64,000 nucleotides of DNA from the sequence record MK327934.1; one strand, 5' to 3'. The stretch is from Escherichia phage vB_EcoM_G2469. This document shows, piece by piece, positions 3,247-8,180 of the stretch. Below the pieces are notes generated by a model. That model was not told the DNA's origin. It saw only the letters and a program-made list of their open reading frames with translations, and did no database searches. The number at the start of each line of letters is the position of its first letter. The first letter of the stretch is position 1. The position numbers and the translations under genes were made by a program.

Positions 3247-3472
3247 CTCGGTCCCATGATTTGGCCATTAATTCGGACATAAATTCTTCAATGCGCGTTT
3301 CTTTAGATGGACTTTCACTATTAGAGACCGCAAGTTTGTAATCTGCAATAGGACAGAACATATCAAGGTCCATATTAAGATCGTCTTTGATTTTTTCTTC
3401 TGACACATCTTTATCGTATGTGTACAGATAACTATCACATGATTCTGATTTAATGTAAATTGCTATACTCAT
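3236..3472 (-). CDS. small acidic hypothetical protein
   Basis: ORF in track (3236..3487); the ATG at 3472 has an AGGAA SD and overlaps the upstream stop as ATGA, so 3472 is preferred. Confidence 0.5.
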   Translation of the reverse strand: MSIAIYIKSESCDSYLYTYDKDVSEEKIKDDLNMDLDMFCPIADYKLAVSNSESPSKETRIEEFMSELMAKSWDRDDE

Positions 3473-3867
3473 CTCAAATTCCTGCATTCGGTAATAAAAC
3501 GTTCAACTTCATTATTCTTGGCCTTTATCTTGTCTTTACGTTCCTGTAAACTACTTTTAACAAGATTAATAATGATGCCTACAGTACCTCCACCAATAAT
3601 ACCACCAATAATACTTACGATAGTAGATGCTAATAAGATAGCGATAATATCTAGTATAGCAAAGGCACTTACTTTAGTACTAAAAAACCACACTGACGGT
3701 ACAAATATAATCCATCCTGTTATCCATTGGCACTTATTGAAAAACTTTTCAAGCTCAGCTTGAGTTGTTCGTATTACTTCATCGATAGGTTGATATCCAT
3801 TAATGTATCTGTTCACGATAATACCTGCTGGCTGGTTGATTTTAAATTCTTGGCAAATATGTTTCAC
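3469..3867 (-). CDS. hypothetical membrane protein
   Basis: 132 aa; hydrophobic segments (WIIFVPSVWFF, AILDIIAILLASTIVSIIGGIIGGG). Confidence 0.6.
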   Translation of the reverse strand: MKHICQEFKINQPAGIIVNRYINGYQPIDEVIRTTQAELEKFFNKCQWITGWIIFVPSVWFFSTKVSAFAILDIIAILLASTIVSIIGGIIGGGTVGIIINLVKSSLQERKDKIKAKNNEVERFITECRNLR

Positions 3868-4636: not shown

Positions 4637-4942
4637 TTATTTTCCTCGACATTCTTTAATGAAATTTTCTAGATTGGTAGATTCAATAGCTTTTTTACGA
4701 GCTTCTGCGTGTTCTTCTTCTGACAATTTACATTTATAATTGACCCAGACATTATGGTCGAAACTAGTCGTGGCATATAATAACAAAGCTCCGACGAATA
4801 ATAAAAACGGTGATAAGAATACAAAACCAGGAACACCATCCATACTGTAAGCCTTTTGTAATACTGCAACAGAAAGAGTTGCGTAAAAAAGTGATGCAAA
4901 TATTGTTAAAAGACCAATTCGGTTGGTTTCGCCTAATTTCAT
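4637..4942 (-). CDS. hypothetical membrane protein
   Basis: 101 aa, two hydrophobic helices; GGAG SD; leader plus ATG identical over 24 bp to that of the 9377..9682 gene. Confidence 0.6.
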   Translation of the reverse strand: MKLGETNRIGLLTIFASLFYATLSVAVLQKAYSMDGVPGFVFLSPFLLFVGALLLYATTSFDHNVWVNYKCKLSEEEHAEARKKAIESTNLENFIKECRGK

Positions 4943-5012: not shown

Positions 5013-5969
5013 TTATTTGAAAGGTTTTACCATATGGAAATTTTGTTTGAAACGTTTGACGTAATCGTCATGTCCTAAGCTTTGGTACATACTTACTACT
5101 TTGCTGTAGTTTTCCCAGGCGTATTCACGGAACCAACCGGAGGTGATGCTTGTGCAGACTTTTTCTAATGCCATCATGAAACTGGCTTCAGGGTTAATTT
5201 TAAAGTCATTAGGAATCTGAGAACGTTCTAATGCTAGTACACATGATTCTTCATATACACCGGCCAATTTGACCATTTCTGGTAACGATTCGAACTTCTC
5301 GCGTGAGGTCATGACTTCAGAACCGTCTTTCATATAAAATGTATAAGCCGGACGGTCTGTTAGTGCAATGGCTTCATGAATAGTATCATGGTCATATGTA
5401 TAGATGTCATCTTTAAAGAACGCACTTTTAGAAGTGTCAAGAACCGGGTGAGCATAGTTCAAGGTTTCTTTCTGGCGTTTCAGCATAATTTCAGTAAGTT
5501 CATCGTTCAGTGTAACACCTTTACCACGAAGATACTGAATATGGTTCATAGTCTTTAAAAAGAATGGATTATTTTTCTTGAAACGATGAGACATCTTAAT
5601 TGCAAGGCACATCTCAGGAGTTGCCCAGTAAAACCCGTTCAAACGGTCTTTAGTCAAATTTTTCTTGGCGTATTTTAAAAGGTCATAAGAAGACGTGAAA
5701 TCTTCAGGAGTGAGTTCACCAACTAATTCACGGACATTAGTGATTGCCGGAACAATATATGCTTCAAAATGAGTTTCGCGTCCATTATGGAAGCATTTGA
5801 AAACTTGGACATCAGGGTTATCTTGGTGAACATATACACCCATCATTTGATTTTTGAATGCATTCCAAGAACATTGGTCCGCAATAAAGTCCCAATCACT
5901 ATTTTTGATAGCGCTAGAATCAATAAGACCGTGATAGTGAAGTGCACGAGAACCAATAACCAACATCAT
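5013..5969 (-). CDS. hypothetical protein with possible nucleotidyltransferase-like GS...DxD motif
   Basis: 318 aa; N-terminal VIGSRALHYHGLIDSSAIKNSDWDFIAD; GAGGAAAA SD; function is inferred only. Confidence 0.65.
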   Translation of the reverse strand: MMLVIGSRALHYHGLIDSSAIKNSDWDFIADQCSWNAFKNQMMGVYVHQDNPDVQVFKCFHNGRETHFEAYIVPAITNVRELVGELTPEDFTSSYDLLKYAKKNLTKDRLNGFYWATPEMCLAIKMSHRFKKNNPFFLKTMNHIQYLRGKGVTLNDELTEIMLKRQKETLNYAHPVLDTSKSAFFKDDIYTYDHDTIHEAIALTDRPAYTFYMKDGSEVMTSREKFESLPEMVKLAGVYEESCVLALERSQIPNDFKINPEASFMMALEKVCTSITSGWFREYAWENYSKVVSMYQSLGHDDYVKRFKQNFHMVKPFK

Positions 5970-5997: not shown

Positions 5998-6249
5998 TTA
6001 AATTTCACGACATGCGATATTATATTCATCCCAGAGGTCATCATGTGAAGCCTCTACCAAAGGAACGATTGTACCGTTTATGTCTTCATTATAAGGGCAA
6101 ATTGTACAGTGCGCATCTTCGAATCGGATGCCTTTGTGTTCAGATTTTTTATAACGCATATCGAATATCTTTGCAAACTTTTCACGAGTAATGGTTTTAC
6201 CAACCACTTTGGTTCCGATACTTTCGTAATAAATCATTGTGGACTCCAT
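5998..6249 (-). CDS. small hypothetical protein, Cys/His-containing
   Basis: 83 aa; early promoter at 6266..6294. Confidence 0.55.
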   Translation of the reverse strand: MESTMIYYESIGTKVVGKTITREKFAKIFDMRYKKSEHKGIRFEDAHCTICPYNEDINGTIVPLVEASHDDLWDEYNIACREI

Positions 6250-6265
6250 TTGTTTTGATAGGACT

Positions 6266-6294
6266 ACTATAACATAGCCCTATCTTGTTGTAAA
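6266..6294 (-). promoter_or_regulatory. sigma70-type early promoter (cassette)
   Basis: TTTACA-N17-TATAGT, same repeated motif. Confidence 0.5.
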
Positions 6295-6299
6295 CTGTT

Positions 6300-6497
6300 T
6301 TAGCAAGAATAACTAGATGATACCCAGCCTTGAACAGTGATACTATTGTGGGATAATGAGATCGCGTCCTGGAGATTCAGACCTGCGTTATCTTCAATCC
6401 ATAATGTAACTTCTTCGCGTTCTTCTGTTGCAATTTGGAACAGGTTTTCCAGGGCAGCTACTGCCGTACGTACAGCACAATCTAATTCACGAGACAT
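6300..6497 (-). CDS. small hypothetical protein, C-terminal WVSSSYSC tail (paralog 1 of 3)
   Basis: 65 aa; AAGGAA SD; conserved C-terminal tail shared with the next two ORFs. Confidence 0.55.
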   Translation of the reverse strand: MSRELDCAVRTAVAALENLFQIATEEREEVTLWIEDNAGLNLQDAISLSHNSITVQGWVSSSYSC

Positions 6498-6506
6498 ATG
6501 ATTTCC

Positions 6507-6779
6507 TTAACAAGTGTGAGAAGATGCAACCCAACCGCCATCTTCAAGGCTCAGGTTGTAGTCGTATTGGTAAACGTCGGCCCATTCAGCATAGCCGTTT
6601 TTTGTACAACGTTCAAGATCGGCTTTAAGATGTCCGGGTGAATGATAGGTTCCACCCATACCATAAGCTGGGTACAAGTCGAATGTTGTGTTTTGTTTAT
6701 CAGCAATTTCTTTGGCAGCCTCAATAGCTGCATAGATTTTTGCTACAGCTTCAGCCAGTTCGGTTTGTTCTTTAGACAT
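6507..6779 (-). CDS. small hypothetical protein, C-terminal WVASSHTC tail (paralog 2 of 3)
   Basis: 90 aa; AAGGAA SD. Confidence 0.6.
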   Translation of the reverse strand: MSKEQTELAEAVAKIYAAIEAAKEIADKQNTTFDLYPAYGMGGTYHSPGHLKADLERCTKNGYAEWADVYQYDYNLSLEDGGWVASSHTC

Positions 6780-6788
6780 AATGATTCC

Positions 6789-7094
6789 TTAGCACAACGC
6801 TGAAGACGAAACCCAAGCACCTTCAGTAATAACGTAACCATTACCTTCACGCTTAACATCGCCACCATTATTTTCAATTTCATTTTTCATCCACTGGGAT
6901 ACGATTTCACCCTTAGGATAATAAGTACGACCGCTACCATAATCACCTACAGAAAATGATACGGCATATTGGTCTGCGATCTTTGTTGCTTCTTCTTCAA
7001 TACGTTCAGCTTGATTCAGAAGTTTATAAATTGCATCTGAAGCGGATTTGGCATCATTAAACTCTGGTACTTTAATTTCAATAATCTTACTCAT
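6789..7094 (-). CDS. small hypothetical protein, C-terminal WVSSSALC tail (paralog 3 of 3)
   Basis: 101 aa; AAGGAA SD; promoter GTTTAC-N17-TATAAT at 7155..7183. Confidence 0.6.
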   Translation of the reverse strand: MSKIIEIKVPEFNDAKSASDAIYKLLNQAERIEEEATKIADQYAVSFSVGDYGSGRTYYPKGEIVSQWMKNEIENNGGDVKREGNGYVITEGAWVSSSALC

Positions 7095-7154
7095 TTTCTA
7101 CATTCCTTAATAAAGTTTTCTATTGTTTCATTTTCACGTCTAGCTAGGAGTTCA

Positions 7155-7183
7155 TTATAACTAATCATTTGAGAAGCGTAAAC
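7155..7183 (-). promoter_or_regulatory. sigma70-type early promoter
   Basis: GTTTAC-N17-TATAAT on minus strand. Confidence 0.5.
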
Positions 7184-7192
7184 AGCATAAAT

Positions 7193-7585
7193 TCAGTTCA
7201 GGCTTTTGCATCTTATTTCCTTAACGAATTCCATAGCTTCTTCATATTCATACTTTTTAACAGCTTCATCATACTGAGCTTTGGCTTTCGCGCACTGAAC
7301 TTTCCATTCACGAACTCGAGCTCTGTGATGACGGCCTTGGTACCAATATCCCACCAAGTTAATAGGCATTAATAAAAATGGCACAATAAACGACCCGGCT
7401 ATAATAAGTAAAAACACTGCATCAGACGATATAACTTCACTAGAATCTAAAACAGCTCCTATAATCATAAAGATTAAAAATGCTAAAGCTAAAATAGGGC
7501 CAAATAGTACTTCATTTGGGATTAATTTACGCTTGTATTCGTATGCCCAGGGCTTAATTGGCATGTACAGGGTTGGCTTTGACAT
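7193..7585 (-). CDS. hypothetical membrane protein
   Basis: Two hydrophobic helices; track start at 7615 is a TTG; in-frame ATGs at 7585 and 7564, so the start is uncertain. Confidence 0.5.
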   Translation of the reverse strand: MSKPTLYMPIKPWAYEYKRKLIPNEVLFGPILALAFLIFMIIGAVLDSSEVISSDAVFLLIIAGSFIVPFLLMPINLVGYWYQGRHHRARVREWKVQCAKAKAQYDEAVKKYEYEEAMEFVKEIRCKSLN

Positions 7586-8156
7586 ATTCTCTACATTCCA
7601 TAATAAATTGCTCAAGGATTAAATTGTTAGTGAAATTAGGACTAACAACCATAGTTTCATAAAGCGCATCAATAGCACTTAAAGCATCAACTCTTTTAAG
7701 CAAAGGCTTGCCTTCATACATAGTTTCAGAATCGATGATTAACGTAAAGTAATATTTTTTATTATCGACTAGAACTTCCGTATCGATATAAAACATATTA
7801 GACCTCAGAAGCTTATCTCTAAAACCATAATAATCTTCAGAGCGTTCGCTGATATATTCCCATTCAGTGTTTAAACAACAAACAGACCATGTAGGAGCAA
7901 CGAAATCAGTGAATCTAATATCATGGTCTGCAACTAGTTTAGCAATAGCTCCGATATCATGAATCATAATACCTGGGGCTAATAAAGATTTTCTGCTATG
8001 GCTAGCCGTTTTCTCAGTAGTCTCATAAGAAGACGACCAGTACCATTTACGTCCAGTTGCAACATATCGTAATGAATCAACTAAAGACGTAGGTGGATTT
8101 ACCTTATTTCGGAACTCTTCGAACATTGAGTCAATATCATTATTTTGGTTTCGCAT
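7554..8156 (-). CDS. hypothetical protein (about 200 aa)
   Basis: Track start at 8177 is TTG; the ATG at 8156 is preceded by AAAGGAG SD. Confidence 0.6.
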   Translation of the reverse strand: MRNQNNDIDSMFEEFRNKVNPPTSLVDSLRYVATGRKWYWSSSYETTEKTASHSRKSLLAPGIMIHDIGAIAKLVADHDIRFTDFVAPTWSVCCLNTEWEYISERSEDYYGFRDKLLRSNMFYIDTEVLVDNKKYYFTLIIDSETMYEGKPLLKRVDALSAIDALYETMVVSPNFTNNLILEQFIMECREYVKANPVHAN

Positions 8157-8180
8157 GTTAACTCCTTTATTATCCAAAAG

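Follow-up and report, generated by a model that had tools for sequence, protein, structure and literature searches.

AbiE, made up of the DUF1814 toxin AbiEii and its upstream antitoxin AbiEi, is among the most common anti-phage systems. ANT and Lnu, fold relatives of the phage enzyme treated below, O-nucleotidylylate hydroxyl groups, GlnD uridylylates a Tyr of PII, and CitX and MdcG form a phosphodiester to a Ser of an apo-acyl-carrier protein (apo-ACP). In lanthipeptide synthesis, a Ser hydroxyl is activated before elimination. The MntA-HepT pair relies on poly-AMPylation of Tyr (PMC11586414). MenT toxins can phosphorylate an active-site Ser/Thr, and the phosphoacceptor of MenT1 lies just upstream of the DxD motif (T39-R-D41-x-D43) (PMC11375011); the MenA1 antitoxin, of 7.4 kDa, shows that a minimal binding partner suffices to regulate MenT1 (PMC7450476, PMC11375011). 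Here, we analysed 64,000 nucleotides (nt) of Escherichia phage vB_EcoM_G2469 (MK327934.1; this whole stretch is referred to as the window), in which three tandem genes encode small proteins with a common C-terminal tail upstream of a gene for a predicted nucleotidyltransferase (NTase). We tentatively read the tail as the element that this NTase recognises, most likely as a site of Ser modification.

A conserved C-terminal tail in three tandem genes

The window belongs to a Mosigvirus, an RB69-like T4-type phage, and the 4 kb around the trio are 97–98.5% identical to RB69 and many relatives. In RB69 coordinates, the trio falls between e.2 and e.3, with RB69ORF136c, ORF137c and ORF138c+139c as its counterparts. 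The initial annotation had described three minus-strand open reading frames (ORFs) of 65, 90 and 101 amino acids (aa) that end in QGWVSSSYSC, GGWVASSHTC and GAWVSSSALC, each with its own AAGGAA Shine–Dalgarno (SD) site. The coordinates and translations bear out the three ends, and the SD sites were found as well:

6789–7094, minus strand: tail protein 1, 101 aa; phrog_899 member, ortholog of the frameshifted RB69 ORF139c/138c
6792–6815, minus strand: codons of the tail GAWVSSSALC of tail protein 1
7103–7108, minus strand: AAGGAA SD of the 101-aa gene
6507–6779, minus strand: tail protein 2, 90 aa; phrog_899 member, RB69ORF137c
6510–6533, minus strand: codons of the tail GGWVASSHTC of tail protein 2
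6785–6790, minus strand: AAGGAA SD of the 90-aa gene, partly within the TAA stop of the 101-aa gene
6300–6497, minus strand: tail protein 3, 65 aa; phrog_4882 member, RB69ORF136c
6303–6326, minus strand: codons of the tail QGWVSSSYSC of tail protein 3
6503–6508, minus strand: AAGGAA SD of the 65-aa gene, partly within the TAA stop of the 90-aa gene

The family assignments rest on hidden Markov model (HMM) matches with E-values of 1.8e-22 (101 aa) and 4.8e-19 (90 aa) for phrog_899 and of 7.7e-37 (65 aa) for phrog_4882. The second and third genes each show a TAAGGAA overlap of stop codon and SD, with spacers of 9 nt, and the 101-aa gene starts with an ATG at 7094 that shares an ATGA overlap with the stop of a remnant ORF of 25 codons.

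Within the window, an end of the form W-x-x-[ST]-[STG]-x(0-3)-C is confined to the trio (3 of 398 six-frame ORFs with a length of 35 aa or more). Searches, first with individual proteins and later with a profile, gathered 146 clusters of homologues, and 122 sequences were read. About 112 of these 122 have precisely G-W-x-[SAP]-S-S-x-x-C as their end and a few are longer by one residue, the other exceptions being mainly frameshifted or truncated entries; the tail, whose absence from homologues the initial annotation had named as the outcome that would count against it, is thus present in distant homologues. We defined the tail superfamily by a C-terminal W-x-x-S-S-(x-x)-C in which Cys is the last, rarely the penultimate, residue, a pattern that all three window ORFs fit. 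Among the non-redundant tail ORFs of the loci described below, 176 out of 182 conform, 146 in the long form and 30 in the short form (S-S-C). The long-form tails (n = 146) are 100% conserved at W(-7), S(-4), S(-3) and C(0), and the codons beneath these invariant residues comprise all six for Ser (TCN and AGY) and both for Cys, while synonymous sites between genera are near saturation (proportion of synonymous differences, pS, 0.6–0.85). Codon diversity and synonymous near-saturation together indicate that the tail is conserved at the protein level, as had been claimed, and the diversity of the Ser and Cys codons excludes a nucleotide-level explanation. Variant tails occur at four enzyme loci (W-E-S-S-E-S-S-E-C, W-N-S-S-D-C, W-S-S-S-N-L-N-C and W-N-S-S-N-C-F). 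Separately, a 58-aa array member in Acinetobacter phage KARL-1 (L122, 2030–2206) ends in ...VWHNSNWSNSES, without Cys and with intact members around it, and looks like a decayed tail protein.

Linkage of the tail genes to an enzyme gene

The initial annotation had missed both the variety of the family, in which one genome can have as many as six paralogue types and some proteins bear two motifs, and an enzyme gene that lies 330 nt downstream of the trio (6300–7094) on the same strand. The features of this part of the window are:

5013–5969, minus strand: partner enzyme, 318 aa; RB69ORF134c, phrog_2141 member, with DUF7277 at residues 2–101 and DUF7275 at residues 120–305
5998–6249, minus strand: 83-aa ORF, RB69ORF135c, phrog_3723; between the trio and the enzyme gene, with its own promoter-like site upstream
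6266–6294, minus strand: promoter-like TTTACA-17-TATAGT with a TG extension, downstream of the trio and ahead of the 83-aa and 318-aa genes (consensus match)
7154–7182, minus strand: promoter-like TTTACG-17-TATAAT of the sigma-70/T4-early type, 5' of the trio (consensus match only)

The 83-aa ORF is found in Mosigvirus, Dhakavirus and some Karam-like loci and is absent from other loci; given this lineage-restricted occurrence, it is probably a passenger rather than a core part of the module. Both promoter-like sites resemble T4 early promoters, and judging by these sites the module in the window is probably among the early genes.

The arrangement was followed from both sides. Of 31 loci gathered through the tail proteins, from sources that range from short metagenomic viral contigs to a 371-kb contig of a jumbo phage, 30 have a DUF7277+DUF7275 gene directly downstream on the same strand, and the exception is a truncated contig. 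Gathering through the enzyme gave 88 loci (80 from IMG/VR and 8 contigs from metagenome-assembled genomes), 79 of which carry one to six tail ORFs within 3 kb upstream under the strict pattern, or 83 when variant tails are included; no tail ORF was found at any other place in these loci (~0.8 Mb). True absences of tail genes come down to L052 and one lineage (L071, L072, L074 and L100), one member of which has a frameshifted enzyme. Across 26 enzyme lineages (60% identity), the tail family is the sole co-conserved neighbour, occurring in 18 lineages versus at most 3 for any other family. The link spans T4-like phages, Otagovirus, Phapecoctavirus, Acinetobacter phages and jumbo phages of ~360 kb, and the same gene arrangement is seen in the isolates Pseudomonas phage phiPsa374, Escherichia phage nepoznato and Acinetobacter phage KARL-1. 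In related loci, the small genes often lie just 10–60 nt from the enzyme start. The module is almost confined to lytic phages (313 viral loci versus 8 contigs from metagenome-assembled genomes), and no fusion of the tail module with the enzyme gene was found among 150 representatives. We consider it highly probable that the tail proteins and the NTase are functionally linked.

Alternatively, the tail could be unrelated to the enzyme, either as a structural or metal-binding end of an independent family or as a tag for a host factor such as a protease, and the synteny could reflect shared inheritance in a plastic early-gene region. The trio indeed lies in a region of T4-type genomes that is known to be plastic and rich in small ORFs; between the trio and the enzyme gene, the window has a promoter-like site and another gene, and in the predicted structure of the 90-aa protein the W-h part of the tail forms a core beta strand. 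However, shared inheritance would not lead one to expect synteny across unrelated phage groups whose neighbourhoods otherwise differ, nor tail ORFs that keep so strictly to the vicinity of the enzyme gene, and we regard this explanation as very unlikely.

The small-protein family

The internal pattern that the initial annotation had seen in both the 90- and the 101-aa proteins is real and corresponds to a YG-x-G-x-TY hairpin; the two proteins match each other by BLASTP (E 2e-6) and, with the tails removed, by hhalign (99.4%, E 1e-21). The 65-aa protein without its tail gives a weak match (hhalign 28%, P 6e-4) with a collinear N-terminal helix, and a single BLAST-linked cluster takes in 164 of the 182 family members once their tails are removed, on which ground we take it to be probably a shortened, diverged paralogue. 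The proteins of this phage-specific family are acidic (median isoelectric point, pI, 4.4), with a median length of 90 aa and a range of 52–207 aa. Related loci hold two further paralogue types, one of 69–75 aa, including an ORF of phage JS98 that ends in GFWFSSSMSC, and one of 72–79 aa in which a short D-W-L-x-S-S-C-Y-G-E motif lies inside the protein and a short W-x-x-S-S-C motif at its end. The paralogue classes (101-type, 90-type, 65-type and two-motif type) are each kept across genera, with up to six paralogues per genome. The JS98 ORF (L003, NC_010105, 2708–2917; 69 aa) is unannotated and lies between the annotated orf127 and orf126; counting it, JS98 has five tandem tail proteins.

An AlphaFold model of the 90-aa protein, built from a 119-sequence alignment (pLDDT 93.9), consists of a helix (3–29), two strands (32–38 and 41–46, the YGMGGTY hairpin), two helices (48–60 and 68–71) and a final strand (81–85, G-G-W-V-A). 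G-W-V-A is thereby the third strand of the beta sheet, and only S-S-H-T-C (S-S-x-x-C) protrudes, at somewhat lower confidence. The initial annotation had suggested that the tail could be a tag: its conservation stands, but in this model it is not a free, floppy extension. The predicted family fold would then comprise an N-terminal helix, the YG-x-G-x-TY hairpin, a variable insert, a final strand G-W-h and an exposed hook, S-S-x-x-C-COOH. The model has no significant match in the PDB, and its matches among viral models are uncharacterised family members only. None of the three tail proteins has a significant match in Pfam, NCBIfam or PADLOC, and their PHROGs are without function, in agreement with the statement that the family was not recognised.

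An invariant tail on highly divergent bodies, some with extra N-terminal domains, would also be expected if the tail were a C-terminal ligand that docks the small proteins onto the NTase, the variable bodies bringing host proteins or RNAs to the enzyme or tuning its specificity. Nearly all members end exactly at Cys, which suggests a dead-end pocket that reads the free C-terminus; co-occurrence with the enzyme is strict, and the existence of enzymes without tail proteins is consistent with a basal activity. A pure docking peptide, however, has no obvious need for two invariant Ser and a Cys, the N-terminal extensions of the longer members match no Pfam domain, and the short form S-S-C and the internal D-W-L-x-S-S-C-Y-G-E copies show that the motif need not offer a free carboxylate at one set distance. 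Such a docking role appears unlikely; like the view that the tail is unrelated to the enzyme, it is less likely than a role as substrate or an antitoxin-like role.

The partner enzyme

The 318-aa protein scores 265 bits for DUF7275 and 96.7 bits for DUF7277 (gathering cut-off 27 each), and all 11 diverse homologues scanned match both domains. Pfam, NCBIfam and PADLOC scans of the 318-aa enzyme gave nothing beyond these two, no DUF1814 or other NTase Pfam family was matched by the 11 members at E up to 10, and sequence and profile comparisons of the enzyme with the PDB returned nothing. GenBank has the enzyme in 733 phage records, and it forms ~1,240 representative clusters (50% identity), almost all of ~300 aa; among species-representative genomes, it was found only on 8 metagenome-assembled contigs. 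Its median pI is 6.2, that is, not basic. Residues G6-S7, D25-x-D27, E69 and K125/S127/H128/R129 are invariant in the alignments, as are D193-H194-D195, H198, E240/E241, E248/R249 and the motif KVCTSITSGW.

The AlphaFold model, for which the alignment was drawn from representative-library matches, has a pLDDT of 93.6 and a pTM of 0.90 and shows an N-terminal alpha/beta core followed by a helical C-terminal half. Compared with solved structures, it scored highest against MenT1 (10.5), TglT/MenT3 (9.0) and ANT(2'') (8.9), followed by MenT4 (8.3), an H. pylori NTase (8.1) and LnuA (7.5). The features of polymerase-beta-type (pol-beta) NTases, namely the hG[GS] ... Dh[DE]h motif, a third acidic residue and the alpha/beta core, are all present. 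As modelled, the 318-aa protein is an NTase of the pol-beta type, to which the MenT/AbiEii and ANT groups come nearest. From the sequence, K125-x-S-H-R129 and D193-H-D195 could be the C-terminal motifs III and IV of MenT. The residues at -2 and -1 before D25 vary across homologues (N/S, D/M, I/R, S/K and P/L), so that the regulatory Ser/Thr phosphoacceptor of MenT is not conserved; MenT-style regulation, which was considered for the 318-aa enzyme, was rejected because the auto-phosphorylation site is not conserved.

A shorter enzyme subfamily (~250–263 aa), without tail proteins, is represented by KVP40 (L124, 2360–3417), Gordonia phage ClubL (L123, 2809–3890) and Streptomyces phage Faust (L125, 2878–3968). 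Its loci carry a different conserved neighbour of ~100 aa (KVP40.0036, ClubL gp17 and Faust gp205) with the common pattern ...R-[YH]-[FY]-[KR]...G-Y...S-[YW]...V-E-V-x-P..., which may be an alternative partner of the enzyme. The subfamily has Ile in place of C272 (KVCTSITSG). An obligatory pairing between the tail Cys and C272 was considered, which this Ile would fit, but was rejected, as four enzymes with Ser at this position still have Cys-ending tails upstream. Of 60 loci, 7 (L052, L051, L098, L101, L114, L118 and L123) have transfer RNA (tRNA) genes no more than 4 kb away from the enzyme, and at L052 (2615–3567) seven of them stand where the tail array would be. An RNA ligase gene is near the enzyme in Faust (L125, 1857–2504), and a ligase-like gene and Thg1 are near it in L130 (2157–2780 and 4802–5635). 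These neighbours give a weak hint of a tRNA-related role of the NTase.

The likeness to MenT leads to the main rival explanation, in which the small acidic proteins would be antitoxin-like regulators that restrain a tRNA-modifying NTase of the MenT/AbiEii type. Acting as a pseudo-substrate, the tail would plug or remodel the active site in the way that MenA antitoxins act on MenT, and the phage would use the NTase to shut off its host, for instance, or to counter defences directed at tRNA. The toxins MenT1, MenT3 and MenT4 are the nearest solved structures to the modelled enzyme, and the small MenA1 antitoxin of 7.4 kDa offers a precedent (PMC7450476, PMC11375011); the small genes lie upstream on the same strand, often at the short distances given above; the acidity of the partners, the presence of tRNA, RNA ligase or Thg1 genes near some loci and the different ~100-aa neighbour in the KVP40, Gordonia and Streptomyces homologues, recalling the partner swapping of MenT, would all fit. 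On the other hand, up to six distinct and long-retained paralogues per genome are unexpected for an antitoxin, the Ser/Thr two residues before DxD on which MenA-induced inactivation depends (PMC11375011) is not conserved, and the enzyme lacks a DUF1814 HMM match even at E 10. The pI of the enzyme, which is not basic, the intact enzymes without tail genes and the separate promoter-like sites and intervening gene in the window also speak against such a pairing. We consider this explanation rather doubtful.

The tail as a candidate modification site

The motif and its conservation, the fold models, the NTase fold and motifs and the strict synteny are results of the analysis; for the reading that we favour, we infer a physical interaction, a covalent modification and a biological role of the small proteins. 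The tail proteins and the NTase encoded just downstream would make up a self-contained two-component module, in which the enzyme would recognise the hook S-S-x-x-C. The two invariant Ser residues would be brought to the DxD metal site by the Trp-anchored strand and by the terminal Cys, whose carboxylate is free; a Ser hydroxyl of the hook would there receive a nucleotidyl or phosphoryl group, and one enzyme could in this way serve several paralogous small effectors with different bodies. We prefer a substrate or recognition site because the invariant tail residues are nucleophiles (Ser, Ser and Cys) plus a Trp, because enzymes of this fold act on hydroxyl groups, because distinct paralogue classes have been kept over long evolutionary distances, and because the motif has stayed invariant while the enzymes diverged to 40% identity. 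The retention of distinct paralogue classes fits several substrates or effectors better than redundant inhibitors. As for the kinds of tag that the initial annotation had proposed, recognition or modification gains strong indirect support from the genomic coupling to the NTase, while nothing supports a degradation tag.

Several findings weigh against a modification site. Intact enzymes occur without tail genes (L052 and the lineage L071/L072/L100), and the short enzyme subfamily of the KVP40, Gordonia and Streptomyces phages is likewise tail-less; the enzyme therefore has a function independent of the tail proteins. Small ORFs upstream of a MenT-like NTase are the classic toxin–antitoxin layout. 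In the window, the trio and the enzyme gene have separate promoter-like sites, with the unrelated 83-aa gene between them. The spacing from S-S to Cys is 0 or 2 residues, rarely 1 or 3, and a rigid active site would have to tolerate this variation.

A more specific form of the favoured reading is possible, if somewhat doubtful. Phages may encode a widespread protein-modification system in which the MenT-like NTase activates a hook Ser on a whole set of small early proteins, giving either a stable Ser-O-nucleotide or phosphate, or a dehydroalanine that goes on to form a lanthionine-like thioether with the terminal Cys, the paralogues being the matured effectors. If so, the thioether would be a lanthionine-like cross-link formed by a new route on folded viral proteins, and the enzyme-matured paralogues could be anti-defence or host-takeover factors.

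Neighbouring genes and further observations

One further feature of the window adjoins the trio:

7193–7615, minus strand: e.3/e.4-like predicted membrane ORF

Its counterparts in phages F27 and JK45 are named 'sulfurtransferase' (see also L119, 2930–3325), a name without Pfam support; a sulfurtransferase was rejected as part of the module, as the label in these two related genomes sits on the e.4-like membrane ORF. At this ORF the window is ~240 bp shorter than RB69 and F27, which amounts to one e.3-like gene fewer.

In the RB69 reference (L001, NC_004928, 5790–6096), the ortholog of the 101-aa gene is broken into ORF139c and ORF138c by a single inserted T and has Pro for the invariant Ser(-3); the split gene looks like a pseudogene or a sequencing error.

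A second C-terminal motif, [NRQ]-F-I-x-E-C-R, ends three minus-strand ORFs near the trio, namely a 132-aa ORF, RB69ORF133c and e.5 (3469–3867, 4637–4942 and 7554–8177), and also occurs in MISYNELLARRENETIENFIKECRK (7095–7169, minus strand), the 25-codon remnant ORF described above that overlaps the start of the 101-aa gene. In related phages, numerous e.3/e.4-like membrane ORFs end in it likewise (also seen in L004, L016 and L026). The DNA under this motif, TTTATTAAGGAATGTAGAAAATGA, holds the SD site of the next gene and an ATGA overlap, so that the motif may be a by-product of a conserved gene-junction cassette.

Another reading of the trio, as internal head proteins with capsid targeting, was set aside. 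Internal head proteins of T4, encoded nearby in RB69, bear an N-terminal capsid-targeting sequence cleaved by the prohead protease; the N-termini of the trio (MSKIIEIKV, MSKEQTELA and MSRELDCAV) are unlike that sequence, no formal search having been made.

Novelty and implications

Literature searches by DUF names, RB69 ORF names, phage NTases and phage RiPPs (ribosomally synthesised and post-translationally modified peptides) found nothing on the module or on either family. The motif and its link to the enzyme are absent from databases and the searchable literature, in which the members are labelled hypothetical proteins or DUFs; for the tail proteins this concerns at least 146 clusters (90% identity). 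The link between hook and NTase offers a concrete hypothesis for several 'dark', probably early, genes per genome in T4-like, rV5-like and jumbo phages. Were the tail a modification site, the module would amount to a new viral system for post-translational modification; should the small proteins instead act as inhibitors, lytic phages would carry MenT-type NTases with their own regulators, which would bear on the interplay with AbiE. The motif also supplies a simple rule that recovers genes missed by annotators, such as the unannotated ORF of JS98.

Comparison with known systems

The window proteins are clear members of PHROG 899 and 4882, of PHROG 2141 and of DUF7277/DUF7275. These entries are without function and mention neither the C-terminal motif nor the link between small proteins and enzyme.

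In relation to ANT(2'') and LnuA, the phage enzyme is larger and has the DUF7275 helical domain; moreover, those two use small-molecule substrates and have no partner proteins. The pairs of an NTase and a small partner, MntA-HepT, GlnD-PII and CitX/MdcG-apo-ACP, share with the phage module a dedicated small, often acidic, partner and, as proposed here, modification of a side-chain hydroxyl. However, neither the phage enzyme nor the small proteins have a sequence or family relationship to them, and the proposed site is a Ser in a C-terminal hook, not a Tyr or an internal Ser, with several paralogous substrates.

RiPP and lanthipeptide arrays resemble the locus in that tandem small genes lie directly upstream of one enzyme gene, and in S-S-x-x-C the Ser residues at i-3/i-4 from Cys have the spacing of a lanthionine ring. 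In the phage proteins, however, the 'core' end is conserved and the body variable, the reverse of RiPPs, and they are folded domains of 52–207 aa. No dehydratase, cyclase, protease or exporter is co-conserved across the 26 lineages, and the neighbours in the window have no RiPP-enzyme Pfam domain.

The MenAT and AbiE systems (MenT1-MenA1, MenT3-MenA3 and AbiEii-AbiEi) differ from the phage module in several respects. The phage enzyme has no DUF1814 HMM match, does not conserve the regulatory Ser/Thr phosphoacceptor and has an extra ~140-aa helical region with an invariant His/Asp/Glu cluster; its partners carry an invariant C-terminal motif and no DNA-binding domain; and the module resides almost only in lytic phages. 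The locus also departs from an operon of one antitoxin and one toxin, with one to six small genes per enzyme and, in the window, the 83-aa gene and a promoter-like site in between. On the other hand, the phage enzyme has pol-beta motifs I and II and a model structurally similar to the solved MenT toxins, the small ORFs are upstream on the same strand, and partner families appear to be interchangeable in both, as described for MenT (PMC7450476) and as suggested here by the KVP40, ClubL and Faust neighbour.

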